A stretch of DNA of 64,000 nt from an uncultured virus (IMG/VR IMGVR_UViG_3300034062_000589) (Duplodnaviria > Heunggongvirae > Uroviricota > Caudoviricetes), in IMG/VR virus record IMGVR_UViG_3300034062_000589; one strand, given 5' to 3'. Made by a program: the position numbers and the translations under genes. The notes under the pieces were generated by a model. It was not told the DNA's origin. It searched no databases and saw only the letters and a list, made by a program, of their open reading frames with translations. Below, piece by piece: positions 22,743 through 40,932 of this stretch (its first letter is position 1; each line of letters begins with the position of its first letter).

Positions 22743-24565
22743 AAATAATTGCACTCGACTTCGAGACGTACTACGACAAAGAGTACAGCCTCAGCAAGAT
22801 GACTACTGAGGAGTACATACGAGATGAACGATTTGAAACTATAGGGGTGGGGGTAAAAGAAGATGGAAAAGATGCCGTGTGGGTGGCAGGTACACGAGAC
22901 AAGATCAAGGCGTTTCTGGATTCGCTCAACTTATCTGAGCATCTGGTACTCGCTCATAACGCTATGTTTGATGCCGCTATTCTTAATTGGCGTTTTGACA
23001 TTCGCCCTCGGGGTTGGCTTGACACGCTTAGCATGGCGCGTGCTGTGGTGGGCACCCACACCCCCCTCCGTCTTGCGGCACTTGCGGAATATTTCGGTAT
23101 TGGAGAAAAAGGGGAAGAGGTAAAGCGCGCCGAAGGTAAACGCCGCACGGACTTTACGACGGTAGACTTAGCTGCGTATGGCGAGTACTGCAAGAACGAC
23201 TGCACCCTGACGCTGGAGTTATTTAAGGTGCTGTCACAAGGGTTCAACAAGGATGAGCTAAAGCTGATTGACCTGACCATCCGGATGTTCTCGGAACCGG
23301 TGCTGGAGTTGTCGCCAACTAATTTGTACGCACACCTGAAATACATACAGAAAGAGAAACAGGCTTTGCTTGATGCGGTAACTATGGTGGATAAAGATCA
23401 GCTGATGTCTAACGACAAACTGGCTGCAACACTAAAGCTACTCCACGTGATACCGCCCACCAAGATAAGCCCGGCTACAGGTAAGGAGACCTACGCGTTT
23501 GCAAAGAGTGACGAGGCGTTCAAGGCACTGCTGGAACACGAGGACCCAAAGGTGCAAGCTATTGTGGCTGCTAGGCTAGGTGTTAAGTCTACGTTGGAAG
23601 AGACTCGCACTCAGCGGTTTATTGAGATTGCTGGGCGTGGCACGTTGCCTATTCCCTTGCGGTACTACGCTGCACATACCGGGCGTTGGGGTGGGGATGA
23701 CAAAGTAAACATGCAGAACCTGCCGCGCAGTTCCCCGCTGAAGCATACTATCTACGCCCCAGACGGCTACATGATGATTGACGCAGACTCGTCGCAGATT
23801 GAAGCGCGGACACTGGCGTGGCTGGCGGAGCAGGATGACTTGGTCGATGCGTTCGAGCGAGGTGAAGATGTGTACAAAAAGATGGCGTCAGCTATCTACA
23901 GCAAGCCCGAGAGCGACATTACCAAAGAGGAAAGGTTTGTTGGAAAGACAACAATCCTCGGGGCGGGGTATGGGATGGGCGCGGCTAAGTTCCAGACTCA
24001 GCTAAAGAACTTCGGCGTTGCGCTCCCGCTGGAGGAATGTCAGCGCATCATCAGCGTGTATCGGGAGACCTACCCTATGATTCCGGCATTCTGGAAAAAG
24101 GCTGGCGATGCCCTTGGAACTATCATGAGCAATCAGGCGGGGGAGCTGGGTAGGGATGGCATCTTAAAAATTGACGGGTTGCAAGGCATTCTTTTGCCCA
24201 ACGGCATGCGAGTTAAATATCCGCACCTGCGCAAGATCATAAATGATGACGGTAAGACGGAGATGGTGTACGATACAAAGAGGGGGAAAGCAACCATACC
24301 GAATAGGATATACGGCGGCAAGGTGACAGAGAACGTTTGCCAAGCCCTAGCCCGCATAGCAATCGGTAAGCAGATGCTGATGATCGCCAAGAAATACAAG
24401 GTTGTAATGACGGTGCATGACGCCGTTGCTTGTATCGTGCCAGAAGCTGTAGTTGAGACGGCGCAAGAGTTTGTTGAGATATGTATGAAGTTACGGCCAG
24501 AGTGGGCACCAGACCTACCTCTTAATTGTGAATCAGGATACGGAAGAAGTTATGGAGAGTGTTAA
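22739..24565 (+). CDS. polA: DNA polymerase family A with 3'-5' exonuclease
   Basis: Exo DFET and HNAMFD; TGRW, NMQNLP, motif A DSSQIEAR, motif B KTTILGAGYG, motif C TVHD. Confidence 0.95.
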   Translation: MKIIALDFETYYDKEYSLSKMTTEEYIRDERFETIGVGVKEDGKDAVWVAGTRDKIKAFLDSLNLSEHLVLAHNAMFDAAILNWRFDIRPRGWLDTLSMARAVVGTHTPLRLAALAEYFGIGEKGEEVKRAEGKRRTDFTTVDLAAYGEYCKNDCTLTLELFKVLSQGFNKDELKLIDLTIRMFSEPVLELSPTNLYAHLKYIQKEKQALLDAVTMVDKDQLMSNDKLAATLKLLHVIPPTKISPATGKETYAFAKSDEAFKALLEHEDPKVQAIVAARLGVKSTLEETRTQRFIEIAGRGTLPIPLRYYAAHTGRWGGDDKVNMQNLPRSSPLKHTIYAPDGYMMIDADSSQIEARTLAWLAEQDDLVDAFERGEDVYKKMASAIYSKPESDITKEERFVGKTTILGAGYGMGAAKFQTQLKNFGVALPLEECQRIISVYRETYPMIPAFWKKAGDALGTIMSNQAGELGRDGILKIDGLQGILLPNGMRVKYPHLRKIINDDGKTEMVYDTKRGKATIPNRIYGGKVTENVCQALARIAIGKQMLMIAKKYKVVMTVHDAVACIVPEAVVETAQEFVEICMKLRPEWAPDLPLNCESGYGRSYGEC

Positions 24566-26130: not shown

Positions 26131-27677
26131 ATAACAAAGTCATCGTCGTTAGAACGAGACGCCCGCACCTAGTGACGGAGAGTATCAAAAAGAGCAAAGT
26201 CGTCGGATGGCTACCGGACGGCTTACATGATGTTGCTGTGCACTACGGACTTGAGGAAGTGCAAGCGCTGGCTAAACTAAATATAAAGAACGTGCCTTCT
26301 ACCATTACCCGAGATTACGACTGGCCGGGCCAGTTCAAACCGTTTGAGCACCAGAAGCAAACCGCGTCATTCCTGACGTTGCGCAAGCGTGCGTTTTGTT
26401 TTAACGAGCAAGGTACAGGTAAGACCGCTGCGGTTATCTGGGCGGCTGACTACCTGATGAAACTGGGTCTGGTGCGCCGAGTGCTTATTATCTGCCCGCT
26501 ATCTATTATGAAGTCGGCATGGCAGAACGACTTGTTCCGGTTTGCTGTGCACCGTAGCTGCGACATTGCGTACGGTAAGCGTGAGCAGCGTAAGGCAATT
26601 ATTAACGGTGAAGCAGAGTTCGTCATCATTAACTTTGACGGGTTGGATATTGTCAAAGAGGAAGTAGCCAACGGTGGGTTTGATCTGATCGTAGCGGATG
26701 AGGCATCGGCTTACAAGAACATGCAGACAGCGCGGTGGAAAACACTGAAGTCAGTGCTCACTCCTGATACTTGGTTGTGGATGCTGACCGGCACTCCCGC
26801 TGCGCAGTCGCCTGTGGATGCTTACGGTATTGCAAAGCTAGTCAACCCTGATGGTGTGCCTAAGTTCTTCGGCCAGTTCCGCGACAAGGTGATGGAAAAG
26901 GTAGGCCAGTTCCGCTGGGTGCCCCGCCCTAACGCTGAGATCACTGTGCATAACGCATTACAACCGGCAATAAGGTTTGAGAAAGCGCAGTGTCTGGACC
27001 TACCGGAGGTAACATATACCGAGCGTGACGCACCACTCACCCCGCAACAGGACAAGTTCTATAAGTTGCTGAAGCAGCAAATGATGATTAACGCCGGAGG
27101 TGAGGAGGTCACGTCTGTCAACGCGGCGGTCAACCTGAACAAACTCCTGCAAATTTCTGGGGGCGCAGTCTACGCAGATAACAAAGAGGTTGTGGAGTTC
27201 GACGTGTCCAACCGGCTAAAGGTAGTACAGGAGGTCATCGAGGAGTCAAGCAATAAGGTGCTGGTCTTCGTGCCGTTCACACATACAATTGAGCTACTCA
27301 TGAGCCACCTTAAAGGTGCTGGTATTACTTGTGATGTCATAAGCGGGCAAGTTACGGTTAACCGACGAAACGATGTGATCCAAAGATTCCAAAATGAGAA
27401 GGAACCGCGAGTACTCATCATCCAACCACAAGCAGCATCGCACGGTTTGACGTTGACAGCAGCGGATACGATTATCTGGTACGCCCCTGTGACGAGTGTA
27501 GAAACTTACCTACAAGCAAACGCACGTATCAATAGGCCGGGGCAGAAGAACGCGATGACTATTGTGCATATCAAAGGCAGCGAAGTGGAGTCAAGGCTTT
27601 ACCGGATGCTGCGTAGCAACATAGCCAACCACACAAAAATAATTGATTTATACAAACAAGAGCTTGGCGGCGCTTGA
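26118..27677 (+). CDS. SNF2-family helicase
   Basis: EQGTGKT, VADEAS, LTGTP, HGLTL, QANARINRPGQ. Confidence 0.92.
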   Translation: MQIVDNKVIVVRTRRPHLVTESIKKSKVVGWLPDGLHDVAVHYGLEEVQALAKLNIKNVPSTITRDYDWPGQFKPFEHQKQTASFLTLRKRAFCFNEQGTGKTAAVIWAADYLMKLGLVRRVLIICPLSIMKSAWQNDLFRFAVHRSCDIAYGKREQRKAIINGEAEFVIINFDGLDIVKEEVANGGFDLIVADEASAYKNMQTARWKTLKSVLTPDTWLWMLTGTPAAQSPVDAYGIAKLVNPDGVPKFFGQFRDKVMEKVGQFRWVPRPNAEITVHNALQPAIRFEKAQCLDLPEVTYTERDAPLTPQQDKFYKLLKQQMMINAGGEEVTSVNAAVNLNKLLQISGGAVYADNKEVVEFDVSNRLKVVQEVIEESSNKVLVFVPFTHTIELLMSHLKGAGITCDVISGQVTVNRRNDVIQRFQNEKEPRVLIIQPQAASHGLTLTAADTIIWYAPVTSVETYLQANARINRPGQKNAMTIVHIKGSEVESRLYRMLRSNIANHTKIIDLYKQELGGA

Positions 27678-27701
27678 CAATGTCAAAAGTTAGTGTATAG
27701 T
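27674..27701 (+). promoter_or_regulatory. Sigma70 promoter with a palindromic -35 region
   Basis: TTGACA-16 bp-TATAGT; TTGACAATGTCAA is a 13-bp palindrome. Confidence 0.65.
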
Positions 27702-27705
27702 TCAG

Positions 27706-27970
27706 TTGTGCGTGGTAGCACGCATGACCATTGTTGGACGTGAAAACGTAAAGCGGACTAACCCAGAACCGGAAAGCCAAAGAACACGCGGTCGCTTTGG
27801 TAGGAAGACGGGGAAATAGCAGTGGTCAGTCGTGCTAGTGCGCAAGTGCTGGTGGTAGTGGGAGTGATGTTGGAGAACGACGACCCAAGCTGTGGGTGGG
27901 GCTAATAACTACAGCAGCGGGGGCTGGGCAATCCTTTCGTAGTACCGTCTCACTGCTCAGTGACCCCGCA
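27706..27970 (+). ncRNA. Candidate structured leader/ncRNA
   Basis: Unusually long gap in a tightly packed arm; hairpins TGCGTG-GTAG-CACGCA, ACGT-GAAA-ACGT and GCGGGG..TGGGCA/TGCTCA..CCCCGC. Confidence 0.35.
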
Positions 27971-27991
27971 ATCTTATTGAAGGAGCTAAGT

Positions 27992-28393
27992 ATGGATGTA
28001 AAAGATTATCCCGCCGATCAGTTGGCGGACATATACATAAAAATACGCGATAGAAGAGACGCACTGAAGCGAGAGTTTGAAGAAGCGCATAGCAAGTTGG
28101 AATATCAACTTGAACTGATAAGCGCAGAGATGCTGGAGTTGTGTAAGGAGAACAATGCTGATAGCATCAAGACCCCCGCCGGAACCATAATGCGTAGAGT
28201 CGATACCCGGTTTTGGACTAGCGACTGGGAATCTATGTACGAGTTTGTTAAGCAGCATGATGCGTATGCTTTATTCGAGAAGCGTATTCACCAAGGCAAC
28301 ATGAAGCAGTACCTCGAAGAAAACCCAGACCTGCTGCCCAAAGGTCTTATGTCAGATAGCAAATATAAAATTACTGTAAGGAGAAGCAAATGA
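27992..28393 (+). CDS. Conserved replication-module coiled-coil protein
   Basis: AAGGAG RBS; YIKIRD...SIKTPAGT...DWE...EKRIHQ. Confidence 0.8.
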   Translation: MDVKDYPADQLADIYIKIRDRRDALKREFEEAHSKLEYQLELISAEMLELCKENNADSIKTPAGTIMRRVDTRFWTSDWESMYEFVKQHDAYALFEKRIHQGNMKQYLEENPDLLPKGLMSDSKYKITVRRSK

Positions 28394-29310
28394 GCAACGA
28401 AGTTTCTATTTTTAAATCTGGTGATGTAGCACTCTCAGCAAAGAAAACCCCATCGGCACTGACACAGTCGCTGATGAAGAAGAAAGCGCTAAAGCGTATC
28501 GTTGCTAAGAACGGTATCCTGCGCCGACTGGCTAACGGTGATGAAGTAGGTAAGTTGAAGGCACCCTTGCGTGTTGTCATTGTCAACGCATCGACAGAAA
28601 TCTCCCGCACTTTCTACGCTAAGACCTACGACCCAAACGCAGAAGCTGCGCCGCCTGACTGCTGGTCACCTGACGGTCGCAAGCCAGATGCAAGTGTGAA
28701 GCAACCGCAAGGTAAAACATGCGAGAACTGCCCTAAGAACATCGCGGGTTCGGGTCAAGGCAATACCAAGGCATGCCGCTATGGCCGTCGTGTTGCATTA
28801 GTACTGCCGGATGATCTGGATACCAACGTGGCAGGTGACGTGTACCAGATGCAGTTGTCGGCTAAGTCTATCTTTGGCAAAGGCAGTGGGCACACTTTCC
28901 CGTTCAACGCGTACATGGACTACATCTTTGCCAACGGCAGCGACCTTGAGTCTGTGGTTACTGAGATTAGCTTTAACGAGGACAACGACAACCAGACCGT
29001 GCTGTTTAAAGCAGTGGACTTCGTTGCTAAGTATCCGCAGTTGGAAGCTATTGTCGCTGAAGCCGCTACCTCTGAGACTGCACAGAAAGCAGTTGTGATG
29101 TCCGTGTACCAGACCGATACGGAAGGTAAGACAAACAATGAGGAGTTTGAGCAATCGCCTGTACCAAAACCCGAGAAAGCCAAGGCAGAAGCAGTCGAAG
29201 CGGAAGAGGTGGCAGAACCTACGAAGCGCACTTCTAAACCAAAGGCCGAGGTTTCGGATACGCCTAAGAAATCTCTTGCGGATGTGGTCAGTGACTGGAG
29301 CGACGATTAA
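28390..29310 (+). CDS. Putative single-stranded DNA-binding protein
   Basis: PDCWS.DG..PD...C..CPKN..GSG....AC motif; acidic tail ending WSDD; lies between helicase and primase. Confidence 0.6.
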   Translation: MSNEVSIFKSGDVALSAKKTPSALTQSLMKKKALKRIVAKNGILRRLANGDEVGKLKAPLRVVIVNASTEISRTFYAKTYDPNAEAAPPDCWSPDGRKPDASVKQPQGKTCENCPKNIAGSGQGNTKACRYGRRVALVLPDDLDTNVAGDVYQMQLSAKSIFGKGSGHTFPFNAYMDYIFANGSDLESVVTEISFNEDNDNQTVLFKAVDFVAKYPQLEAIVAEAATSETAQKAVVMSVYQTDTEGKTNNEEFEQSPVPKPEKAKAEAVEAEEVAEPTKRTSKPKAEVSDTPKKSLADVVSDWSDD

Positions 29311-29540
29311 TGAGCTACGGATACAGCCAACGACTTGTTGACCTGAACAAACGGGCTGACAGGAAGCTGCTTGGCGTTATCTTGGGCAAGGCATGTATCG
29401 AGGCTGAGTCTTCGGTGCGTGCCATCGCTGACCATCTGGGAGTAAGCCGCACTACGGTCTACAACTGGTTTACTGGTTTATGCGACCCGCACCCAAAACA
29501 CCACGCAGCAATCAGCAAACTGCTTAAGCGTTTGAAGTAA
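29310..29540 (+). CDS. Cro/XRE-like HTH protein
   Basis: VRAIADHLGVSRTTVYNWFTG. Confidence 0.85.
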   Translation: MSYGYSQRLVDLNKRADRKLLGVILGKACIEAESSVRAIADHLGVSRTTVYNWFTGLCDPHPKHHAAISKLLKRLK

Positions 29541-29564: not shown

Positions 29565-29588
29565 GGGGGGAGCGATCCCCCCTTTTTT
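29565..29588 (+). terminator. Rho-independent terminator/attenuator before the primase
   Basis: GGGGGGA-GCGA-TCCCCCC followed by TTTTTT. Confidence 0.75.
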
Positions 29589-29607
29589 ACCCTCATACAA
29601 TAATTAA

Positions 29608-32505
29608 ATGGCTAACTTCGACTTAATGAATGCTGTGCTGCCCGATCAGGGCTGGTATTGCATTGTGGGGATTAAGGACGACGTAGCGTGGCAGGAGCTT
29701 GTACAGACTAGAGAAGAGGCAGATGAGTTTATCAAGCGGTATCTGAAGGGTGGGCGCGACGTTTATTTTGGTTGCGCCAAGTTTGAAACTAACGCGAATC
29801 GTAAGCAGGAGAACGCTGCGTACTTCCGTGCCCTTTGGATGGATATTGACTGCGGCGAAGATAAAGCAAAGCCAAACCCTAAAAAGAATAACCGGATCGA
29901 AGGCTACGTAGATCAAGCCACCGGGATGCAAGCACTACGAGAGTTCTGTTCCACAATAGGACTGCCCAAACCTACAGTCGTTAACTCAGGACGTGGCTGG
30001 CATTTGTACTGGCTACTTACTGAAACTATAGATAGAGCACGCTGGCAACCACTTACTAAGCGGCTATCCAAACTTTGCAACACCCACGGACTGATTGTGG
30101 ACCCTTCCGTCTTCGAGGCGGCTCGGATACTGCGCGTACCGGGGACGTTAAACTTTAAAGACGAACAGCCTAAGCCGGTTGAGGTGCTGTCCGTTGCACC
30201 GCCTATCGAGTACGAGAAGCTCAAGGAAATTCTGGGCGTAAGTGCCGAGGACGAGCAGTACATACCCAAGCGCAGAGGCCCCCCGTCCGCCCTGACCATG
30301 GCGCTGATGAAGAACCGCACGTCGTCGTTTAAGAAGATTATGATGTTGGGTGGTGACGGTTGTCTTCAGTTGACGCACTGCTATCAGAATCAAGAGTCCA
30401 TAGATTACAGCTTGTGGCGCTCAGCTATATCAATTGCGGCGTTTTGTGAGGACTCATATACAGCGGTCCACAAGCTATCTAATAAGTACCCGCACTATGA
30501 CCCGGCGGAAGTGGACGAGAAAGCGCACAACGTGCAGTCCACGGGGGCCCCACATCACTGCGAGACGTTTGAGCGGTGGAATCCGGGTGGTTGCGATGGC
30601 TGCAAGCACAAGGGCGCATTTAAATCTCCTATCGCTTTGGGCCGGACGATAGCTACTTCTGAAGCGACAGAAGAGGGTTACCTGATTGAGCCGGAAGACG
30701 AAGAAGAGGATGAAGGCAGCGTAGCGATTGCACCTACTTACATTCCGACTTATCCATTCCCATATACGCGGGGTAAAGGTGGCGGCGTGTACCGGGAGCC
30801 GATGAAGGATGAGGAAGAAGCAAAGCTGGTTTACGAGCACGACATTTACGTAATGCAGCGCATGATCGACCCGGAAGTAGGCGAGGTAATGCGAATACGT
30901 CTGCACTTACCCAAGGACGGCGTTAAGGATTTTACAATAGCAGCAAGCGCACTGACCGGTAAGGACGAACCGAAAAAGCTGTTAGGTGCTAAGGGCGTGT
31001 TGGCTCGGGGTACGCAGATGGACGAAGTAATTAACTTTTTGCTTAGGTGTGCAAAGGAAATACAGATAACCACGAAGGCAGATATTATGAGAACACAATT
31101 TGGTTGGGCTGATGGAGACAGTAAGTTTATTCTGGGTGACCGGGAGCTTACGGCGGATAGCATTTACTACAGCCCTCCTTCAACAGCGACGAAGCATCTG
31201 GCACCGTACGTCATAGAGTCAGGCACATTAGAGAAATGGAAAGAAGTCTTTAACCTTTACACCCGCCCCGGTCTGGAGCCGAACGCGTTTGCTGCGCTGT
31301 CAGCATTTGGTGCACCACTACTTAAGTTCACCGGGCAAAAGGGCGCGATCATTAACTTGGTCTTCCGGGGTTCAGGCTCAGGTAAGTCAACAACGCTGGC
31401 TGTATGTAACAGCGTGTGGGGGCACCCAGATAACCTGATGTGTATCCCGAAGGACACAGTCAACGCCAAGATGCTAAAGCTTGGTGTGATGAATAACCTG
31501 CCGTTCACGATGGACGAGATAACGAACATGGTGGCAGAAGAGTTCTCTGATATGTCCTATGGTATGTCTCAGGGTCGATGGAAAGACCGGTCCATGGCAG
31601 CGACTAACGAACTCCGACTTAATACGACATTCTGGCAGACCATTTCTCTGTGCTCAGCCAACGCACACTTCGCGCAAAAGCTGGCTTCTTTGAAGGCTAC
31701 GCCGGACGGGGAGATGATGCGCTTGATGGAATACCAGATTGGCTACTCAGATGCTATCGACGTGGCAGAAGGTAAGCAATACTTTGACCATCAGTTGCGC
31801 GAGAACTACGGTGTGGCTGGTGGGATTTACGCACAGTGGCTTGTCGGCAACAAAGAAGAAGCAGTTCAGACCATGCGGGCTATCCAAGCCAAGATCGACA
31901 AAGAGTTGAAGCTGACTCAGCGTGAGCGGTTCTGGTCTGCGGTTGTTGCATGTAACATCACTGGTGGTTTGATTGCCCGCAATCTTGGCTTGATCGACTA
32001 CGACATGAAGGCTATTTACAAGTGGGCAACAGACCTGATTAAGGAACTGCGCAAAGAAGGCAGTGCCCCAATGGATGACGCCTCGACTGTGTTGGGTGAC
32101 TTCCTCAACCGCCACGTGGACCAGTGCTTAGTAGTTAACGGAGAAGCCGACTCCCGCACTAACTTAAGTCCTGCACCGCTACGGGAACCCCGAGGTGCGT
32201 TGGTTGCACGGTATGAGCCAGATACCAAAAAGCTATACATCCAGTCCAGCGCATTTAAAGATGACTGCGTTAAGAAGCAAATTGGGTACAGCGATGTGCT
32301 ACGCGAGATGAAACTCAAGGGTGTGTTTATTGGGCGTGTGACTCGACGCCTTGGCACCGGGATGAAGATGGTGACCGCACCCGTGTATGTGTTGGAGTTT
32401 GACTGCACCAACCCTGAGTATTTGAACGTTGAGGCTTTTGTCCCAGTGGAGAAACCTGATGCAGGTGGAGAAGGTCAGTTACCAAATCAACTGGCAAGCG
32501 TTTAA
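29608..32505 (+). CDS. Primase-helicase (AEP/RepB-like primase + Cys-rich domain + DUF927 helicase)
   Basis: LWMDIDCG, VNSGRGWHLYW, RILRVPGTLN; C..F...C..C; QFGW, Walker A GSGSGKST, MDE. Confidence 0.88.
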   Translation: MANFDLMNAVLPDQGWYCIVGIKDDVAWQELVQTREEADEFIKRYLKGGRDVYFGCAKFETNANRKQENAAYFRALWMDIDCGEDKAKPNPKKNNRIEGYVDQATGMQALREFCSTIGLPKPTVVNSGRGWHLYWLLTETIDRARWQPLTKRLSKLCNTHGLIVDPSVFEAARILRVPGTLNFKDEQPKPVEVLSVAPPIEYEKLKEILGVSAEDEQYIPKRRGPPSALTMALMKNRTSSFKKIMMLGGDGCLQLTHCYQNQESIDYSLWRSAISIAAFCEDSYTAVHKLSNKYPHYDPAEVDEKAHNVQSTGAPHHCETFERWNPGGCDGCKHKGAFKSPIALGRTIATSEATEEGYLIEPEDEEEDEGSVAIAPTYIPTYPFPYTRGKGGGVYREPMKDEEEAKLVYEHDIYVMQRMIDPEVGEVMRIRLHLPKDGVKDFTIAASALTGKDEPKKLLGAKGVLARGTQMDEVINFLLRCAKEIQITTKADIMRTQFGWADGDSKFILGDRELTADSIYYSPPSTATKHLAPYVIESGTLEKWKEVFNLYTRPGLEPNAFAALSAFGAPLLKFTGQKGAIINLVFRGSGSGKSTTLAVCNSVWGHPDNLMCIPKDTVNAKMLKLGVMNNLPFTMDEITNMVAEEFSDMSYGMSQGRWKDRSMAATNELRLNTTFWQTISLCSANAHFAQKLASLKATPDGEMMRLMEYQIGYSDAIDVAEGKQYFDHQLRENYGVAGGIYAQWLVGNKEEAVQTMRAIQAKIDKELKLTQRERFWSAVVACNITGGLIARNLGLIDYDMKAIYKWATDLIKELRKEGSAPMDDASTVLGDFLNRHVDQCLVVNGEADSRTNLSPAPLREPRGALVARYEPDTKKLYIQSSAFKDDCVKKQIGYSDVLREMKLKGVFIGRVTRRLGTGMKMVTAPVYVLEFDCTNPEYLNVEAFVPVEKPDAGGEGQLPNQLASV

Positions 32506-32653
32506 GCCGGGGGCGTCGTTCTTTATCCCGTGCCTTAATCCAACTACGGCAGTGCAGGACATTTTGCGTGTTACGAAAAGGCTTAAGTTTAAAATCGTAA
32601 CACGCGTTGTTATACAGGAGGGGGTGCAGGGGGTGCGTGTGTGGAGAGTCTAG
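32459..32653 (+). CDS. Small conserved protein, last gene of the + arm
   Basis: GGAG RBS; W..FKPGASFFIPC...GVRVWRV. Confidence 0.75.
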   Translation: MQVEKVSYQINWQAFKPGASFFIPCLNPTTAVQDILRVTKRLKFKIVTRVVIQEGVQGVRVWRV

Positions 32654-32667
32654 GCTATACTCCGCCT

Positions 32668-32739
32668 GACGGCGTCTCCTGAAGTTAGCTCCTTCCGCCG
32701 TTGCTACTCCTTCGCCCCCGCTTAGTCGGGGGCTTTTTT
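32668..32739 (+). ncRNA. Candidate anti-Shine-Dalgarno sRNA
   Basis: Preceded by GTGCGT-17 bp-TATACT; stem GACGGCG/CGCCGTT; three CTCCT motifs; ends in a terminator. Confidence 0.5.
32714..32739 (+). terminator. Rho-independent terminator at the arm convergence
   Basis: GCCCCCG-CTTAGT-CGGGGGC followed by TTTTT. Confidence 0.85.
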
Positions 32740-35700
32740 ATTCCTTGTACGGACTGCGCGGGAGTAGACGCTCTAATGCAGGACGGAGTTTTTCAGACAC
32801 TCGGATGCCGCGCACAGACATCGCACTTGCTTCAACTTCACCGTCAACGGCTTTGATGATGGTATCCATGTCCAACCCAACCATCGGGTTCATACGATTA
32901 AACTTTTTAAGCGAACGGACTGCTTCATCACGGCGCGATGGAGTAAATTTCTTGTTGAGGTCTTTAAACAAGTCCAATACGCGAGTGCGATCTGCTTGAA
33001 TTTTATCTAGCTGCTCCCGCGCCTGCGCTGCATCTTCCTGAGTAGCTGCAACTTTAACTGGTGCAAATCCCGTAGCGGCGATAGCAATTTCTTTATCGCT
33101 TAGCTTATCCCGAGGAATAATCTTGTCATCCTTGAGGTTGCGTACACCTTCTTCGTTCATGCGCATGGCAACTGCAAACCCACGCAGTCCAGCAGGTAGC
33201 AGCATCTCTACACCACGCTGTACATCACCGTCGTTTATACGGCGCATAGCTTCCGCAGTATTTATACCCAATCCCACGCTTGGGCCCAACATGTTGATGA
33301 TGAACTCTCGCAACGCTTCGGGCTCAGACTTACCGGTCTTTAACTCGCGGAACCACAACTGATCCAGCTTAACCCGGCTGTGGAAGTCAACGTCCGTTGC
33401 CCATGAGACAGGCCCACGTTCAAGGGCTAACCCTAAGTCTTCGCCAAACTCCTCACGGAGAAACTTACGGAACCGCAGCTTGGGGTTGCGCTTCTCTGGG
33501 TCTTTATCATCCTCACTTGCCAGAGACATGGCGTAGGCTATTACAGACACCAACGGAAGACCCATAGCACCTGCAAACATGCCAGTCATACCCAAGGTGC
33601 CAACAAACTTAGTAATAGCAGTACTTCGCACTCCGGGTGGTTGCGACCCAAACATAGCCTTGAAGTTCTTAACCAGATAGAACGTGGTCTGCTGCGCAAA
33701 CGATTTGAACTGCAATATGACGCGAGCTACATTACCACGGAAGAACCGAGGCTTATTGAACTCAGAGTAATCAAACATCGCCTCGTCGGTCATGCGGGAG
33801 GCGTCGTTCAGTGCTTCTTCCTGCGCGGTCTTTGCATCACGCCCAGCCTTAGTAGCACGCTCGTAGGCCAAGTCGTAGGCCGTCATGAACATGACTTCGC
33901 GGTTGATCTTTTCGCTGTGGTGGAACAGATACCCTACTGCGTTCATCACGCTCATAGTAGACCCACTGTACTGCTCAGAAGGGGTGCGTGAAAGTTGCAG
34001 CGTGTCGTAGGTCAACGTGGTGTCGATCTTACCCCTACGCAGTGCTTCCATATACGCATCACGACGGTGCCCAGTCAGTCTTGAAAGCAACGTGGGGAAC
34101 GTAAACTTACCGTCTTTATCAGTTACACCAACGGTCTTAAAAATGTTCATGTTCTTGGCAAGTGCCAAGTTTGCGCGAGGGCCGAACTCACCGTTGAGCA
34201 CAGGCATACCAAACACAAACAGACCTGACAAGTTAGTAATTGCCGACGCGGGTGCGCTCATGTAGTACACAAAGCTGGCGCTACCAAGGAAGTTAGCAAA
34301 CTTAGTTGCCGCTGCGTCTGATCGGTCTGGAGAGAGTATGTTCTCTACACGATCTTTCATTTCCTCAATCAGCGGCTTATACAGCATATCCCGTTGAGGC
34401 ATATCCTTTGTTGCGTCCCAAGCTCGTGTCACAGCACCGCGCAGTTTCTGGCCGTACTCAATCTTAGCTAACTGCACCGAGGTATGGAAACTGGACTTAG
34501 CAAAGTTGCGTAGTGCGTCCGAACGGAAACCCGCTGTGCCCTTACGATGAATAAAGTGCTTGCGGAAGTTCTGCTCTGGCAGTGTAGAAAAATACAACTG
34601 GTGTATCTCATCTTTGAGTGCTGGCTTGTCTATCATGTTGGCGTTATCCACCAACTCAAGAATGTCTTTTAACATCTTGGACGAGCGCATACCTTCATCG
34701 ACGGCTTCTTTGAAGTTGTCACCCATAGCGAAGATATTACTTTCGTCTTCTCTTAACGCTTCTACAGTGGTGCCAAGTTCTTTAGCTCGTTGACGCACAA
34801 AGAAGTTACGCTCGCGTGGGTCCTCAAACATGTAGTACTCCATGTTCGAGCTCTTTGGGTTGCCGATACGCACCCAGTACTTACCTTCACGAACCAACGG
34901 GAAGTATGGCTGTGGCAGATTCTCAAAGTCTTTTTCCAGCTTAGCAATGATCTGCGCTTTGGTAGTCTCGTCTGCTTCTGTCTGTGATATACGGTCAAGT
35001 AGAATCTGCTTGTACTTATCAAACCGTGCTTTATAAAAGTCGCGGATGTCGTTGTACAGTTTCTTACCATCAGCGCCCAACGCCTCGTACATCTGCGTGA
35101 GTGTGGCCGACCGTGTATCGACCGAAGGGTCAAGCTGGTTGATGGTAGACAAGTGGATAAGGCGGTTCAAAGTGCGGTACTTACCCGGATTAGCGCGTTG
35201 CCACTCATGCCACACTTTAGCCATGGCAGCGGTCTCGTCCAACATCTTAGACTTAGCACCGTTCATGTCTTCTGCGATGCGCAGCACGTTGTCCAACGTA
35301 GGTTTGCCGTCACCACCAATCATCTGCTTAGCGGCGTTAAGTTCAGTAATCTGGCGTGTGGTCAGTGACCCTAGTAACGGGCGGCGGAACTGAGACTCAG
35401 TGCCGTTGTATATATCAGACACCACATCCTTGGCATCATCCCAGCTACGCACTTTGAGGATTTGCCCAATAATCGTAAGCTGCTCTTCCGGACCCGCTTG
35501 CGGTTGCCTTAACTTTGCGTCAAAGTCTTCGACCTTCTTGCCGTTGTTCTTTACAGCAGCCAGCGTGTCTGGTGTAGTGGCAATCAAGCTCGCGTCACGT
35601 GGCAGGCGCTCACTTAGGAGTGCATCAGTAGTTACCACTAAGTCTTGGAATGCGGACTGGGAGTTAGCGTCAAACCCAAACAGCTTGCGGATAGCCTCGA

Positions 35701-38518
35701 CAAAGCGCGAGAACATCGACATCTTCATCCCCGGCACCTGATTAGCCAAGAACTGCTGCATCATATTATCTGTTAAACCATATGACACAAACTCACGCAC
35801 ATCGGTAAATGCACCCACTTTATTTAACGCGTCGAGGTAAGGCGTGGAACGCCCCTCTGCTTTAGCAACCCGATAGACAAGCGCAGCCCGCTCCATTGTC
35901 TTAGTCATCATCTGCGCAAACGCCTGCAATGCAGGTGCGGTGTCTAGCTCGCCTCGCTCAGCCAGAGCCAGTGCGTAATCCAAGCGCAGGGTGGTAGCAG
36001 CGTGCAGGGCCTCATGCAGAATGGTTGTGTTGTTTACGCCGTTGACATCGCCAAAGCTCTCATCCCGCACATAGATAGTCTTGCGAGACTCGGAGTACAC
36101 GCCTTGCGTAGTGTCTTTAAATGCTTTGCTTATCTCGGCAGGCAGCTTAGTGTCTGGGCGGATTACGACAAACTGTATGCCTTTGACCGCGTTCAGGAGG
36201 CGTTGGGCCAGCAGCTTCTCAAACGGCTTGCCGGTGTTCATTATCCGGCGCAGTGCCTGCTGTGCAGTTGTGGCTGTCCCAAACTTAGGGTCTGCCTCGT
36301 CCGACATGTAAATGCTTGTGGACTTGAGGGGTGCTCTGCCCTGCTCCGCTTTGTAGTCAGCATAAAGCTCTTTGTACTGCGCTTGCTCTTGTGGAGTGAA
36401 CTGCGCTACGGCTTCACGGGCGGCTTTACCAGCCTTGGTCTCGCGGCGTGTAGGGTCTACGCTGGCGATGTACAAGTACATCTTGTTGTTCCACAAGTCT
36501 TCCTTGCGGTTGTTCTCAGCTTCTTCGTAGGCTGTCTGCGCATCCTCGGCGCTAACTCCGCGCTTAGCGAACTGCTCGGGGGCAAAGCCTAATGATAGTT
36601 TCTGGACAGCTTTAACCCGCCCCTCGATGTCACGGGCATCTTGGATTAAGTCCGCAGCTTGCGTTTTGCGTTCTTCCGGCGTCTTTGCTATGTCAGATTT
36701 CTTGCGTCCACCACCCGGTGCACGTTTGCGTACGGGGGCTTCAGCTTGTCCGGCTATGGCTGCGACGGTGGCGGCAGTTTCTTGCGGTCTTTCTTCTTTT
36801 GTTTCGACGGTTTCAATGGCTTCAGCGACACTGGGTTCCTCCGTTATGACTGCTTCAGGGGTTACTTCAGGGGTTACTTCGGGGGCAGTTACAGGCTCAA
36901 CAGCTTCAGGAACAGGCGCTGCTTCCATCGCTTCGGCTGGGGCAACTTGTACAACAGGCTGTACAGCTTCCGGAGTAACTCCACCTGTTTCCACGGGGGC
37001 TGCTTCTCCCACCATTTCAGTAGGAGCAATAGGAGCCACAGCAGTAGGTTCGACCACAGGAGCACGTTGTGCAACGACAAAGCCGCCATCTGGTGTTCCT
37101 TGGATTTCTAGTTGTTCTTTGTTCTCAAGCGTATCCAGCACCGCCTGTGCTTGCTCAAGTGTTGGTAGTGGTGGGGTTAGTGCAGTTGGCTGTACTGCCG
37201 CTCCTGTGACAGGCTCTCCAGTAAGTTGCTCAGCAGTAGCCAGTCCAGATGCGAGAGGTGCTTCAATTCCTCCGGTAACGGCTTCAGTTCCTCCGACAGG
37301 CATAGCAGCGCTAGGCTCAACTGTTCCGTCGATAGCTGGTGAAGGTACGACATCGGCAACTCCTTCCGTAGGCGCAAACTGCTTTGTTTCTTCGTCAATC
37401 AGTGTTTGCAGGCGGTCCAGTTCTCTCTGCTCTTGCGTAGCCGCACGACGTTCCGTAGCAACTTCAGCCACCCCAGTAGTCGCACCAAGGCCAGCACCGG
37501 CTGCTGCTTCCAACGTACCCTGCGCCACAACACCACGCATCGTTGGTACATCAAAGCCTTCTTCTTGGAGTGCAAGGTTCTTAGCCAGTTGTTCTTGTGC
37601 GCCTTGGAGGAATTCAGGACCCGCTTCTTTTGCGGCGGATTTTGCCGCTGTGCCTAGATAACCTTTAGCCGCTTGCTCGGCTACGTCTTCTGCAATATCC
37701 GCTGCGCCTTTACGGGCGAGTTTATTAGCGATCAAGCGGGCAATAGCGGGTTGTGCACCCGTAATAGCTTCGAGCGTACCAAGGCCAGCACCCGTGGTAA
37801 TCATGCCCATGTTCTCGCCAAAGTACTCCTGTGCCTTTACGGCTCGCGCTTCGGCTGCGGCGGGTTTCAAACCGGCCTTGATAAGTTCTTCTGCAACAGT
37901 TTCGTAGATAGCACCCTTGATGGTGCCCGCACCCATGACGGAGCCAACCGCCGCCGTAGTGCCAAGAACAGCCGCCGTAGGTGCGCCCGCTAGAGTAGTA
38001 GCAAGACCCGCAACGATAGCTGGACCCGACGTACCCAACGCATTAACAATGGTGTCTACTGGAGCAACAGAAAGCGCTTTAACACCCGCTATGACCTGAT
38101 CTGCGATACCTTTGTCTTCGGCATCTTTCATGATCTGAGCCATCTCACGCGAGTCTTTCTTTGACTGCGCACTCATCAAACTTGCTAGATGGTCTTCTAC
38201 AGAGCGTAGATTTTTAGACACCGAAGAGTTTGCACCAAACGCGTCAGAGATAAGCCGAACGCCAGTAACTGTTCCCTTCTGTAACTGCAACGGAATATCC
38301 GCAACCTGCCGGAATACAGACTGGTCTTCAGGTGTCGGCTCGGCGGTCTTAGTGCGAGCGTCGATGAACTTGGTGGGCTGCAAATCCTCGGGGAGAAGAT
38401 TGGCAGGGACGGCTCTACTCGTTTGTAATTCGGCGGGTAGTAAATTGTCCGGCACCGCCCTACCAACTGCGGGGGCAATATCCGACGGTAGCAGGTCGAG
38501 AGGTACCGGTTGTCCCAT
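32738..38518 (-). CDS. Large internal virion/ejection protein (polyvalent-like) with HExxH and PLxRFG-like regions
   Basis: About 1926 aa from ATG 38518; TILHEALHAAT; YFPLVREG; acidic Pro/Ala-rich linker; last gene of the structural arm. Confidence 0.7.
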   Translation of the reverse strand: MGQPVPLDLLPSDIAPAVGRAVPDNLLPAELQTSRAVPANLLPEDLQPTKFIDARTKTAEPTPEDQSVFRQVADIPLQLQKGTVTGVRLISDAFGANSSVSKNLRSVEDHLASLMSAQSKKDSREMAQIMKDAEDKGIADQVIAGVKALSVAPVDTIVNALGTSGPAIVAGLATTLAGAPTAAVLGTTAAVGSVMGAGTIKGAIYETVAEELIKAGLKPAAAEARAVKAQEYFGENMGMITTGAGLGTLEAITGAQPAIARLIANKLARKGAADIAEDVAEQAAKGYLGTAAKSAAKEAGPEFLQGAQEQLAKNLALQEEGFDVPTMRGVVAQGTLEAAAGAGLGATTGVAEVATERRAATQEQRELDRLQTLIDEETKQFAPTEGVADVVPSPAIDGTVEPSAAMPVGGTEAVTGGIEAPLASGLATAEQLTGEPVTGAAVQPTALTPPLPTLEQAQAVLDTLENKEQLEIQGTPDGGFVVAQRAPVVEPTAVAPIAPTEMVGEAAPVETGGVTPEAVQPVVQVAPAEAMEAAPVPEAVEPVTAPEVTPEVTPEAVITEEPSVAEAIETVETKEERPQETAATVAAIAGQAEAPVRKRAPGGGRKKSDIAKTPEERKTQAADLIQDARDIEGRVKAVQKLSLGFAPEQFAKRGVSAEDAQTAYEEAENNRKEDLWNNKMYLYIASVDPTRRETKAGKAAREAVAQFTPQEQAQYKELYADYKAEQGRAPLKSTSIYMSDEADPKFGTATTAQQALRRIMNTGKPFEKLLAQRLLNAVKGIQFVVIRPDTKLPAEISKAFKDTTQGVYSESRKTIYVRDESFGDVNGVNNTTILHEALHAATTLRLDYALALAERGELDTAPALQAFAQMMTKTMERAALVYRVAKAEGRSTPYLDALNKVGAFTDVREFVSYGLTDNMMQQFLANQVPGMKMSMFSRFVEAIRKLFGFDANSQSAFQDLVVTTDALLSERLPRDASLIATTPDTLAAVKNNGKKVEDFDAKLRQPQAGPEEQLTIIGQILKVRSWDDAKDVVSDIYNGTESQFRRPLLGSLTTRQITELNAAKQMIGGDGKPTLDNVLRIAEDMNGAKSKMLDETAAMAKVWHEWQRANPGKYRTLNRLIHLSTINQLDPSVDTRSATLTQMYEALGADGKKLYNDIRDFYKARFDKYKQILLDRISQTEADETTKAQIIAKLEKDFENLPQPYFPLVREGKYWVRIGNPKSSNMEYYMFEDPRERNFFVRQRAKELGTTVEALREDESNIFAMGDNFKEAVDEGMRSSKMLKDILELVDNANMIDKPALKDEIHQLYFSTLPEQNFRKHFIHRKGTAGFRSDALRNFAKSSFHTSVQLAKIEYGQKLRGAVTRAWDATKDMPQRDMLYKPLIEEMKDRVENILSPDRSDAAATKFANFLGSASFVYYMSAPASAITNLSGLFVFGMPVLNGEFGPRANLALAKNMNIFKTVGVTDKDGKFTFPTLLSRLTGHRRDAYMEALRRGKIDTTLTYDTLQLSRTPSEQYSGSTMSVMNAVGYLFHHSEKINREVMFMTAYDLAYERATKAGRDAKTAQEEALNDASRMTDEAMFDYSEFNKPRFFRGNVARVILQFKSFAQQTTFYLVKNFKAMFGSQPPGVRSTAITKFVGTLGMTGMFAGAMGLPLVSVIAYAMSLASEDDKDPEKRNPKLRFRKFLREEFGEDLGLALERGPVSWATDVDFHSRVKLDQLWFRELKTGKSEPEALREFIINMLGPSVGLGINTAEAMRRINDGDVQRGVEMLLPAGLRGFAVAMRMNEEGVRNLKDDKIIPRDKLSDKEIAIAATGFAPVKVAATQEDAAQAREQLDKIQADRTRVLDLFKDLNKKFTPSRRDEAVRSLKKFNRMNPMVGLDMDTIIKAVDGEVEASAMSVRGIRVSEKLRPALERLLPRSPYKE

Positions 38519-38520
38519 AA

Positions 38521-40932
38521 TTACTGATACTCCCACTGACCATTTCTAAACACAATAGGTTTCCCGTTTTTATCTTTAGCGGTAGCACCCTCCGTGTATT
38601 TTGTTGTAGCTGGAGGTGGTGTAGTAGTCGTAGTAGTCGTAGTAGGAACACCGGGTCGCTGCACACGTGATTGGACGGTACGTGCAACTTCATCCAAACG
38701 GGCTTGTATTTCTGCCTGAATAGCAGGTTTATCTTTATCGTCTGCCATCAAATACTTAGCCCGTAAATTTTTAATACCCTCGTCGTATCTTTGCGCTTCG
38801 GTAATTTCACTTTGCAGGCGAATATCAACGTTTGAAGCGCCGTATGGGTTATAACGCTTCATCTCCGCTACTTTGGTTGCCGCTTCTGAACGGATGTTTG
38901 CCAGTTCCTGCCCAACAGGGTCTTTGCCGTTATTTCTAGCGCGGTAATCTTCGATACCCCTCTGCGTCTCTGCGCTAAGGAACTCACGATCCAGATTAAA
39001 TTGACCGGCACGAGTAGCAGCAACCCCCGCCATACCCACTCTCTCTGAGGATGCAGTTGCTTCCCGCTTAACCTGAACGTCGGCCAAGGTCTTTTTAATA
39101 TCAGCATCAAGCGTAAACAGCTTAGTTTTGCGATCTTCAATCCGGTCCGCAATTTTATTAGCCTCACCATACCGCTGCATTTTCTCGGCCCGCTCGTAAC
39201 GCGCTGTGTCCAGACGTAGCTTGTTGGCTTCCTTCTCAGACTCCCGCTTGAGCTTCTCGAACTCTTTCATGTTGCGTCCAGCCGCAGCACCAGCTTTACC
39301 CAGTGCAGTAGCAAACGGTACCGCCTCACCAAACGCCGCCATCATCTCAAATGCCGCAGCAGCCTTAGCATTAGACTCAGCCTGTGGGCCCAGCTCAGAC
39401 GCTTTAGCAACTTTTTCAGCCAGCTCAACTGACCGGTCAGGACCGAGAAACTTCTCCAACCGAGCCAAACCTTTTTCTTCTGCACCAACGCGCTCTTCAT
39501 CCGTCATTACAGCTTTAGAAGGGTCTATCGCACGGAATGCAGACACATCGTCTGGTGGAGCTTTAACTTCTCTACCCTTAGCGAATGCAACGATACCGCC
39601 GCCACGCATAGCCGGTGCTTCTTCTGGGGCTTCGCCAACTGCCGTATCTGCAAACATAGCCGCAGGCATAGGAGCCGCAGCGATACCCGAGTCAGCGGTG
39701 TCATCCGCCGCAATCATCTCTTCTTTAATAGTGGTCTGGGGGGTGGACTCAGCCAAAATACCCGAGTTGCGTATGCGGGCGTTCAGGTTCTTCTGTTCCT
39801 GCACGAGTGCCAGTGTTGTAGCGTCACCCGCACCTTGGGCTACCTGATCCAACTGCTCTTCCGACATATCGCCCAACACAGAGCGCAGTTTGTCGATTGG
39901 CATAGTGTTAGGCACACTACCTTGCGGTGCAGCACCAGCGATACCACCTTCAGCCATCTTAATGATGCCGCCATCCTTTTTGAACATCTGATACGCACCA
40001 TAACCACCAAGCCCCAACTGAGCAAGTTGCGATGTCAGCGGAGGCGGTGCCTGATACTGCACTTGTGTTTGCTGGCCGAGCGGAACACCGCGCAAGATGT
40101 CCGACATAAACGCCAACTGCTGCTGTGGGTGACCGCGCTGAGACAGGAAGTCTTGGTAGGCTTGGCTCATTCTCTGCTGTTCCAGACCCTGCTGCTGAGC
40201 ACCTGCCGCTGCCTGCGCTTGCATTGCACCTTGTTGCTGGCCGAACTGAGTCTGACCCAACTGCCCCAAAGTACCTGCCATCTGCCCAGCCATACCGTAG
40301 CCGCGAAGCCCTAAGTCAGCACCAAACTGCTGAGCCTGTCTAGCCTGCTCAAACGCCGTCTGCATGCCGCGACCGTAAATATCACCTTGTTGCTGCGCAA
40401 GATTGCGCTGGCGCTCTGCTTCAACTATGGCCGAACGGGAACCACCAAAGGCACCTTGCTGGACGGCTTGAGCTTGGTTTTGCTGGCCTTGCATTAATGA
40501 CGCACGCTGTGCTTCTCTAAGCTGCGGAGCCATAGCGCCTTCAATATACGGCGACATGTATGCTTGCATACTGCCGGGAGATGTAGCTTGTTGTGCGTAC
40601 TGCTGACCTGCACCAAGACCGCCAAGACCTGCGATGCCCGCCAGTTGCGTGCCTTGCCCTATTTGTTGCGCTGGACCTAAGTTAGCCGCGCCTTGAAATG
40701 ATTGCTGCTGTAGTGGAGTAAAGCCAGCTACACGCTCCCCCTTATATGCTTGGTATGGAGAATCCGAAAAAGCCTCGGCCTTACCCAGCATGCGTTCTAC
40801 ATAGGGGCGGGCGTACTCAGGAATCGTAGTCGTAGTTTGTGTCGTGTTAGTGGGCTGGCTTCCACCACCACCGCCGGGGTAGAGCCTGTTATTACCGTTG
40901 ACGTAGCCGTTGAACTTATTGCGGATAATCAT
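38521..40932 (-). CDS. Internal virion/ejection protein
   Basis: Gln/Gly/Ala-rich; AYMSPY, GAFGGSR, QQQLAFMSDILRG motifs. Confidence 0.7.
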   Translation of the reverse strand: MIIRNKFNGYVNGNNRLYPGGGGGSQPTNTTQTTTTIPEYARPYVERMLGKAEAFSDSPYQAYKGERVAGFTPLQQQSFQGAANLGPAQQIGQGTQLAGIAGLGGLGAGQQYAQQATSPGSMQAYMSPYIEGAMAPQLREAQRASLMQGQQNQAQAVQQGAFGGSRSAIVEAERQRNLAQQQGDIYGRGMQTAFEQARQAQQFGADLGLRGYGMAGQMAGTLGQLGQTQFGQQQGAMQAQAAAGAQQQGLEQQRMSQAYQDFLSQRGHPQQQLAFMSDILRGVPLGQQTQVQYQAPPPLTSQLAQLGLGGYGAYQMFKKDGGIIKMAEGGIAGAAPQGSVPNTMPIDKLRSVLGDMSEEQLDQVAQGAGDATTLALVQEQKNLNARIRNSGILAESTPQTTIKEEMIAADDTADSGIAAAPMPAAMFADTAVGEAPEEAPAMRGGGIVAFAKGREVKAPPDDVSAFRAIDPSKAVMTDEERVGAEEKGLARLEKFLGPDRSVELAEKVAKASELGPQAESNAKAAAAFEMMAAFGEAVPFATALGKAGAAAGRNMKEFEKLKRESEKEANKLRLDTARYERAEKMQRYGEANKIADRIEDRKTKLFTLDADIKKTLADVQVKREATASSERVGMAGVAATRAGQFNLDREFLSAETQRGIEDYRARNNGKDPVGQELANIRSEAATKVAEMKRYNPYGASNVDIRLQSEITEAQRYDEGIKNLRAKYLMADDKDKPAIQAEIQARLDEVARTVQSRVQRPGVPTTTTTTTTPPPATTKYTEGATAKDKNGKPIVFRNGQWEYQ

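Follow-up and report, generated by a model that had tools for sequence, protein, structure and literature searches.

Base-pairing RNAs that phages direct at their own messages are known mainly from a few temperate models. The c4 RNA of phages P1 and P7 pairs through its loops with the ribosome binding site (RBS) region of ant, and seed and target differ between the phages (P1/P7 heteroimmunity), according to the section of the source that deals with this RNA (PMC12197685). CU-rich double-hairpin small RNAs (sRNAs) of Betaproteobacteria also target RBS regions and slow growth when overexpressed, as the excerpted text of PMC5688073 describes them. Here we describe an element at positions 32633-32740 (plus strand) of a 64,000-nucleotide (nt) stretch of DNA, referred to below as the window, from an uncultured virus of the Caudoviricetes (IMG/VR record IMGVR_UViG_3300034062_000589). 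Comparative sequence data indicate that the CU-rich seed of this element co-evolves with one RBS of the phage itself, that of gene 27992. The family spans dozens of distinct uncultured phage genomes, in a clade with hundreds of relatives. No description of the element was found in the literature searched.

By analogy, the closest described system in mechanism is the c4 RNA of P1/P7. Like c4 and the CI RNA of P4, the element would be a phage-encoded structured RNA of ~70-80 nt with loops that pair in trans with a phage RBS region and, as for c4, seed and target vary jointly among related phages. The two are unrelated in sequence and in structure. Rfam has a C4 family, and no match to it was identified at E up to 10 in 32550-32800. 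The c4 RNA is encoded upstream of its target in a temperate immunity operon, whereas the element is at the 3' end of another operon, downstream of the primase gene, and its seed includes the generic CUCCUU anti-Shine-Dalgarno (anti-SD) core. Unlike c4, the element occurs in a phage for which lysogeny genes were not identified among the open reading frames (ORFs) scanned. Neither integrase nor repressor families were found among 15 early ORFs (Pfam) or 16 large ORFs (PHROGs and Pfam); thus, a lysogeny-like quiescent state, which the original prediction made from the sequence of the window had suggested as a role, has no basis.

The element comprises the following parts:

32633-32638, plus strand: -35-like hexamer GTGCGT, within the coding sequence of a small ORF; TTGCGN in most relatives.
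32656-32661, plus strand: -10-like hexamer TATACT, after a 17-nt spacer from the -35-like hexamer and 5 nt past the stop codon; family pattern TAnACT.
32668-32740, plus strand: predicted RNA of ~70 nt, its start placed from the -10 position and its end from the terminator.
32668-32702, plus strand: hairpin 1, with outer stem GACGGCG (32668-32674)/CGCCGUU (CGCCGTT, 32696-32702).
32684-32695, plus strand: seed 1, GUUAGCUCCUUC (as DNA, GTTAGCTCCTTC), the loop plus 3' stem arm of hairpin 1.
32701-32712, plus strand: seed 2, UUGCUACUCCUU (as DNA, TTGCTACTCCTT), in the single-stranded linker 5' of the terminator.
32676-32680, 32689-32693 and 32707-32711, plus strand: three CTCCT motifs, read from the sequence.
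32714-32739, plus strand: intrinsic terminator, GCCCCCG/CGGGGGC at 32714-32733 (7-base-pair GC stem, 6-nt loop) and TTTTTT at 32734-32739.

All of the motifs, the stem, the spacer and the terminator named in the original prediction are present and correctly placed. In hairpin 1, UCUCCU and a 4-base-pair inner stem (GAAG/CUUC), which closes the 7-nt loop UUAGCUC, lie inside the outer stem. The CUCCUU motif has the same letters as the anti-SD end of 16S rRNA. In the plus-strand fold (-28.0 kcal/mol, z = -2.74; 0/200 shuffles as stable), single-stranded GCUACUCCUUC lies between hairpin 1 and the terminator. The minus strand likewise gives a stable fold (-31.9 kcal/mol, z = -3.39). The terminator works on the plus strand only, and an A-run that would give a minus-strand U-tract is present in 0/61 distinct elements. 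Because TAnACT, exposed CUCC and the plus-only T-run persist in the family, we take the plus strand to be the functional one. These observations support the element as a conserved plus-strand unit that combines a -10-like hexamer with a one-way terminator and with CU-rich anti-SD motifs exposed in loops or linkers.

We listed the gene starts upstream of the primase gene in 21 diverse loci. The RBS of one orthologous gene mirrors the local seed, and in the window this site is as follows:

27979-27989, plus strand: conserved target RBS, GAAGGAGCUAA, of gene 27992-28393, which opens an operon located 4.6 kb upstream of the element.

The matching variants (seed with RBS) are UUAGCUCC with GGAGCUAA, UUUGCUCC with GGAGCAAA, GUUGCUCC with GGAGCAAC, CUAUCUCC with GGAGAUAG, and CUCCAU with AUGGAG. 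The window pairs GUUAGCUCCUUC with GAAGGAGCUAA. In loci L067, L073 and L074 the pair is GUUAGCUCCAU with AUGGAGCUAAC, and the 5' arm of the hairpin has also changed, from GGAAG to GGAUG, with three positions changing together. Loci L027, L028 and L069 have GUUUGCUCCUU with AAGGAGCAAAC (L159 has 10 nt at the equivalent position), L030 has GGUUGCUCCU with AGGAGCAACC (9 nt in L023 and L025), L064 has CUAUCUCCUUG with CAAGGAGAUAG, and L076 has UUUCUCCUUGG with CCAAGGAGAAA. There are six distinct matched states, and therefore at least five double changes, irrespective of the tree.

Some loci have a second block of pairing to the same RBS. In L027, a second 11-nt block (ACUAGACACUC with GAGUGUCUAGU) is separated from the first by a 4-nt bulge; it follows the seed on the 3' side in the element and precedes the RBS on the 5' side in the message, the order needed for antiparallel pairing. 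L009 and L012 have a 13-nt seed match with the target RBS and also a second register, in which the linker motif plus CGUGGUU faces AACCACGAAGGAG of the same RBS. The second-register match is 13 nt and exact in L012, and 10 nt plus a bulge (by eye) in L009.

Duplex energies over 61 distinct element/RBS pairs average -19.65 kcal/mol for the phage's own pair vs. -17.14 kcal/mol for cross-pairs (0/10,000 permutations). Using one representative per cluster, exact complements of at least 9 nt were identified for the own RBS in 9/18 clusters vs. 10.1% of cross-pairs (0/100,000 permutations), and permutation of the mean over the 18 clusters gave P = 0.00038. The L004 representative scores 0, and a small extra gene before its orthologue has a 13-nt match. 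The original prediction had listed the RBS of gene 27992 among several targets and had proposed seed/target co-variation in relatives as a check, and the at least six variant pairs now bear this out. The RBS at 28378, another proposed target (an 11/12 match, which is present), and its orthologues show no preference for the own site (mean longest match 5.76 nt own vs. 5.55 nt cross; 2/55 own matches of at least 9 nt). In the long loci L098, L134 and L150, which belong to classes that match only the SD core, no RBS match of at least 9 nt was identified anywhere.

Within the window, the complementarity to RBSs of the phage was predicted to extend past the SD core, and every listed match is present. 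The complement of GTTAGCTCCTTC occurs as 12/12 nt at 22264, 11 nt at 21473, 11 nt at 27979 and 8 nt at 13786. The complement of TTGCTACTCCTT occurs as the 11/12 match at 28378 and as 9 nt at a minus-strand RBS (1929-1937), and AGGAGAC, the complement of GTCTCCT, is found at 10413 and 14972. Two of these matches, apart from the conserved target, are:

22264-22275, plus strand: 12/12 complementary RBS of gene 22278-22742 (154 amino acids, aa; no family; coupled to polA), with the match kept in L079 and L081 only.
21473-21483, plus strand: 11-nt complementary RBS of the DUF3310 gene 21485-21979.

Apart from the RBS of gene 27992, the targets listed in the original prediction are not supported. 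At these two sites the matches are real, although they recur only in the closest relatives (L079 and L081). The sites at 1929, 10413 and 14972 match as proposed, but 7-9 nt is the level of any SD-containing site. A 16-nt RBS cassette, TTATTGAAGGAGCTAA, is identical at 22259-22274 and 27974-27989, before two unrelated genes. The three long matches are thus not independent, as all fall on one recurrent cassette. Separately, GAGCTAA is found 1-3 nt before ATG at five plus-arm sites (13786, 16198, 21476, 22268 and 27983).

Comparison with shuffled SD-containing controls, also proposed with the original prediction, was made with 73 RBS windows from a simple ORF-plus-SD caller, using 2000 shuffles in which only the bases outside the three CTCCT cores were permuted. 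Enrichment was found for three or more matches of at least 11 nt (P = 0.002), for three or more of at least 10 nt (P = 0.018), and for a longest match of at least 12 nt (P = 0.026). The window alone is only moderately significant, and therefore the comparative data carry the weight. It is hardly credible that this is an ordinary terminator region with RBS complementarity by chance. SD-like cores are common and matches of 7-9 nt occur with many RBSs, but chance would have to account for the P values of 0.002 to 0.026 in the window, for the ~16-fold enrichment of CUCC over the 62 distinct elements, and for the cluster permutation (0/100,000).

The family was assembled from relatives in IMG/VR, where 372 relatives of the primase were confirmed by tblastn and at least 592 were confirmed for polA. 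Pattern-based extraction recovered the unit from 83/159 sources (158 loci plus the window), many of the remaining loci ending before the region; the extraction yielded 62 distinct sequences. Every relative inspected has the small ORF followed by the same kind of unit, and a terminator-ended unit is present in 81 of the 83 loci whose sequence includes the small-ORF end and 130 nt or more beyond it. Element bodies (50-90 nt) cannot be aligned between classes, for which primase identity is 47-60%. The pattern NT[GA]CGN-17-TAnACT is nonetheless found in 46/62 distinct elements (TATACT in 16, TACACT in 11, TAGACT in 11 and TAAACT in 8), and the -10-like hexamer is offset by +5 from the stop codon in 48/62. 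TATACT, TAAACT and TATAGT are also the -10 hexamers of the window's best sigma-70-like sites.

The CU-rich motif is the most constant part of the body: CUCC is present in 60/62 bodies, CTCCT in 57/62 and CTCCTT in 49/62. The density of CUCC is 3.66 per 100 nt in bodies vs. 0.22 on the plus strand of the window (~16x). The mean unpaired probability is 0.79 at CUCC vs. 0.53 at other body positions, and in 58/62 elements the best CUCC has an unpaired probability of at least 0.5, giving an accessible seed. TTAGCTCC is found in 25/62 elements, and near variants (UUUGCUCC, GUUGCUCC and UCAGCUCC) in others. In minimum free energy folds, the 5' part of the seed is in a hairpin loop in 29/34 distinct elements with this seed type. 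This loop is mostly the 7-nt UUAGCUC, closed by the arms GAAG/CUUC (6 elements), GGAAG/CUUCC (5), GGAUG/CAUCC (4), or GAGA/UCUC or longer. The stem sequences of hairpin 1 vary among relatives. Alignment of 12 elements with MAFFT followed by RNAalifold recovered only the terminator and three spurious pairs, since the stem arms are put out of register by indels, and the elements were therefore folded one by one.

A similar heterogeneity is described for the cuckoo/CcsR RNAs of Alphaproteobacteria, which share an anti-SD-like loop motif while their stems are free to vary, so that covariance models perform poorly, according to the passages available from PMC4615179. In that account the family is united by a loop motif and not by an alignable structure, which is the same kind of heterogeneity as in the element family. 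The two differ in that the cuckoo motif, CCUCCUCCC, is described there on 2-4 tandem hairpins in bacterial chromosomes, whereas the element has CUCCUU with the extension UUAGCUCC and variants, and is found in phages. None of the cuckoo-related Rfam families reached threshold in the element (best, suhB/mmgR at 13.1 bits). The element family exemplifies elements with a common position, motif and function but no alignable structure.

In architecture, the closest RNAs are the double-hairpin sRNAs of Betaproteobacteria (RF02278 toxic small RNA, RF02837 anti-hemB, and the NmsRs of Neisseria), judged from the portions of their descriptions consulted. The element aligns weakly, on the plus strand, to the RF02837 and RF02278 models over their full length (32667-32741 and 32673-32740), with scores well below the gathering thresholds (20.5 vs. 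49.5 bits and 19.5 vs. 50 bits, respectively). The likeness (two hairpins and CU-rich unpaired stretches complementary to RBSs, as those portions describe them) is one of working mode and not of membership. The element differs from these sRNAs in that it is encoded by a phage and its seed tracks a phage RBS.

The resemblance bears on the idea that the element is a general anti-SD RNA, in which CUCCUU acts broadly on host and phage messages or mimics the 3' end of 16S rRNA, and the long matches to phage RBSs are secondary. The CUCC(UU) core is the only near-universal feature (CUCC in 60/62, CTCCTT in 49/62), half of the clusters are without an extended match to their own Gam-like RBS, the RF02837 and RF02278 models are weakly similar over the full length (20.5 and 19.5 bits), and CU-rich double-hairpin RNAs that target RBS regions slow growth on overexpression, at least in the excerpted account of PMC5688073. 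Such an RNA leaves unexplained why, in at least six variant pairs, flanks reaching 4-7 nt past the core follow the phage's own RBS. We regard it as improbable as a full account, though it is compatible with a specific function of the kind set out below.

Our preferred reading, which we think probable, is that 32633-32740 encodes a small regulatory RNA on the plus strand, or at least forms a self-contained RNA module at the 3' terminus of the primase/small-ORF message, with an anti-RBS function that represses the Gam/Gp157-like gene 27992. A sigma-70-type promoter, with its -35 in the final codons of the small ORF and TAnACT 5 nt past the stop codon, would start an RNA of ~70 nt that would end at the intrinsic terminator, the motifs of which are present. 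In the predicted fold, CUCCUU motifs would be displayed, one starting in the 7-nt loop UUAGCUC and another in the linker before the terminator. The loop UUAGCUC could contact GAGCUAA in the RBS of the 133-aa Gam/Gp157-like gene, and the duplex might spread through the 3' stem arm to form the 9-13 contiguous pairs, covering AAGGAG, for which complementarity and co-variation are observed. Loop-first contact followed by strand exchange would be a natural pathway because the 3' stem arm is itself an anti-SD sequence. Binding of 30S would be blocked, cleavage by RNase perhaps invited, and synthesis of the target protein capped or shut off. In the window, genes 22278 and 21485 also have RBSs that carry the recurrent cassette and fit the same seed.

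Several points weigh against this reading. We infer transcription of the element from its motifs; contigs in RNA libraries show neither ends, strand nor level (four runs contain 5-9% of sampled words, as contigs only, and three runs cover parts of the primase/small-ORF region). The promoter motifs were judged by sigma-70 rules, which are perhaps not those of the host. The -35-like hexamer coincides with Leu/Val-Arg codons of the small protein, within the C-terminal codons G-V/L-R-V-W-R, so its conservation is confounded by coding constraint and only the -10-like hexamer is free of it. The L027, L069 and L159 class has a poor -10-like hexamer, so a free-standing promoter is not universal. In the remaining 9/18 clusters, the own match is the 5-7 nt SD core only, so a specific target is unsupported there. 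The flanks of the exact blocks are random: of 451 positions, 92 are Watson-Crick, 58 G-U, 72 A-C, and 229 other. Gene starts in relatives were set by a simple ORF-plus-SD rule. Finally, L137 and L140, with polA ~57% identical, are without the unit, and a convergent gene directly abuts the stop codon of the small ORF.

One contig, of 157 nt (run X4, the RNA nature of which is a guess), covers 32635-32736, ending in the T-run, before continuing on the other strand over 32606-32657. It is not used as evidence, as it could be an artefact of assembly or of cDNA synthesis.

Some of these points suit a different reading, in which there is no free sRNA and the element is the untranslated 3' tail (3'UTR) of the primase/small-ORF message, pairing with the upstream RBS between molecules, or within one long transcript where no terminator intervenes. 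We hold this to be a serious but lesser prospect. The element is directly after a translated ORF, with which it has the terminator in common, the L027, L069 and L159 class has its poor -10-like hexamer, and a crude pattern picked up a terminator separating the primase gene from the target operon in only 10/51 loci. The mechanism also has a precedent: in icaR of Staphylococcus aureus, a pyrimidine-rich 3'UTR motif pairs with the Shine-Dalgarno region, blocks initiation and makes an RNase III substrate, as related in the sections at hand of PMC3868564.

The likeness to icaR, as far as those sections go, is that a pyrimidine-rich 3' motif faces a Shine-Dalgarno region. In icaR as they describe it, both ends are on one short mRNA, whereas the target of the element is in another operon 4.6 kb upstream, with a terminator-like site between the two in the window, and the element has promoter-like signals of its own. 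The target operon ends in the window at a strong terminator-like site (29565-29590); thus, regulator and target would be on separate transcripts there. This argues against intramolecular pairing in the window, though the tail could still pair between molecules. Also at odds with a mere tail, TAnACT is kept at a fixed 17 nt from a TTG-type hexamer in 46/62 elements despite non-coding sequence that cannot be aligned.

The random flanks are relevant to a further alternative, a DNA inverted repeat or a minus-strand copy of the RBS. A protein (e.g., the 76-aa helix-turn-helix (HTH) protein encoded in the target operon, or a translational repressor) would bind both copies, or minus-strand late read-through would carry decoys of the RBS, or GGA sites, that sequester CsrA or a similar factor. 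The blocks are exact and sharply bounded, without G-U enrichment in the flanks, as expected of a repeated protein-binding site. Because the flanks are random, RNA-RNA pairing is not provable over a DNA inverted repeat via G-U pairs. The minus-strand fold is stable (-31.9 kcal/mol), and the hairpin is no terminator on that strand, so late transcripts could enter the element.

On the other side, all of the pairs listed (30/30) are in reverse-complement orientation on the same transcribed strand. The SD core is always kept in the element copy and L027 has its bulge, both of which are to be expected of RNA pairing but are not accounted for by a protein site, and the conserved -10-like motif and T-run indicate the plus strand. 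The DNA-level repeat is disfavoured by the orientation, the L027 bulge and the plus-strand signals, and we consider this alternative very improbable. Its minus-strand form includes a CsrA/RsmA sponge, which the original prediction had offered as an alternative and which finds no support: the minus strand has three GGA sites, some of them within stems, a U-tract is possible in 0/61 elements, and Csr/Rsm families of Rfam have no match at E up to 10 in 32550-32800.

If the preferred reading of a repressing RNA is right, the pairs of seed and RBS might further constitute a diversifying specificity code, c4/ant-like, in apparently lytic phages, with each RNA silencing the first gene of the recombination module only of genomes with a matching RBS. 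This extension is speculative, and we think it unlikely on present evidence. If true, the RNA would serve both self-timing and the exclusion or taming of co-infecting relatives, and the three-way change in L067, L073 and L074 would mark the opening of the hairpin by strand exchange with the target. Irrespective of this, nature already supplies a genetic test of RNA-RNA pairing in the form of these compensatory variants. The pairs (UUAGCUCC/GGAGCUAA, UUUGCUCC/GGAGCAAA, GUUGCUCC/GGAGCAAC, CUAUCUCC/GGAGAUAG) are short and orthogonal, and could serve as small orthogonal translational repressors.

The target protein (133 aa) matches phrog_13900 (E 1e-19), with sub-threshold Pfam similarity to Mu Gam/Sipho_Gp157 (E 4e-4 to 6e-4). 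Its predicted structure (predicted local distance difference test score 88.7) has a long N-terminal helix and a small alpha/beta domain. A profile search against PDB sequences gave nothing below E 0.2, Foldseek gave no match to the model at E of 0.001 or less, and VIA-align matched only the long N-terminal helix (Z of 5.9 or less). The orthologues are ~131-147 aa and are located 4.4-4.9 kb upstream of the element across relatives; tblastn placed the gene in 81/83 element-bearing sources, and a start codon was assigned in 80.

The operon begins with a promoter-like site:

27674-27701, plus strand: TTGACA-16-TATAGT, with 11/12 matches to the consensus.

A site of the form TTGACN, 16-18 nt, TANNNT is present upstream of the target orthologue in 42/51 distinct loci, often 21-33 nt before the start codon. 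With a promoter at this distance, the targeted RBS would be at the extreme 5' end of the mRNA. In the window, the -35 of this operon is inside a perfect palindrome, TTGACAATGTCAA (27674-27686), and most of the listed relative sites begin with it or with a sequence close to it. The palindrome could act as an operator, possibly for the HTH protein of the operon. Between the promoter-like site and the targeted RBS there is a conserved structured leader (27889-27969; P1 27889-27893/27911-27915, P2 27917-27928/27956-27969). For the leader in 13 relatives, RNAalifold gave 19 pairs, 10 with compensatory changes, and there is no Rfam match; the leader is absent where the promoter is ~25 nt from the start codon. 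Further genes of the operon encode a 306-aa protein without a family, for which phmmer identified no match in PDB, and the 76-aa HTH protein (29310-29540; HTH_23, 28.2 bits).

No close cultured phage was identified among the relatives in DNA and protein searches of the GenBank phage collection. The DNA search gave zero matches, and the best protein match is Pseudomonas phage Rollin (primase 29% identical), which has different genes after the primase and in which the element is absent. The scan of bacterial genomes found one 8-kb contig of a metagenome-assembled genome with the element (L159) and one unrelated partial match, from which no host can be inferred. The 15-mer GAAGTTAGCTCCTTC alone is not diagnostic of the element, because half of the 80 loci listed for it in IMG/VR (40) are unrelated coding sequence; the other 40 are the element. 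At the gathering threshold, zero Rfam families were found in the window and zero in 16 related loci. From its distribution in sequence data, the element family is kept by a large clade of uncultured ~60-kb phages and is without an Rfam entry, so that it escapes annotation pipelines.

The genome in the window is that of a phage, with a plus-strand replication arm (~10.4 to 32.5 kb) flanked on both sides by structural and packaging genes on the minus strand. The arm encodes a DUF2201 peptidase/VWA protein, the DUF3310 gene, polA (22739-24565), an SNF2 helicase, a PD-(D/E)XK nuclease and the DUF927 primase/helicase (29608-32505). No tRNA genes were found in the window. The element is within an 84-nt convergent gap, from the stop codon of the small ORF (32653) to that of a minus-strand gene for a 1932-aa protein. 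The genes on either side are:

32459-32653, plus strand: small ORF (64 aa) that overlaps the end of the primase gene; phrog_7200 match (E 5.5e-4), with a homologue in all relatives inspected.
32738-38536, minus strand: convergent gene for the 1932-aa protein, with an LPD39 domain and a DarB-like C-terminal part; its stop codon is inside the terminator T-run.

Residues 734-991 of the 1932-aa polyvalent protein match a virion RNA polymerase PHROG family (E 3e-17). The primase start (29595-29622) is without a Shine-Dalgarno sequence (acaataattaaATG). In the window, L079 and L081, the first codons of the primase gene, ATGGCTAACTTCG, contain a 9-10 nt complement to the element's 5' stem and loop, GAAGTTAGC.

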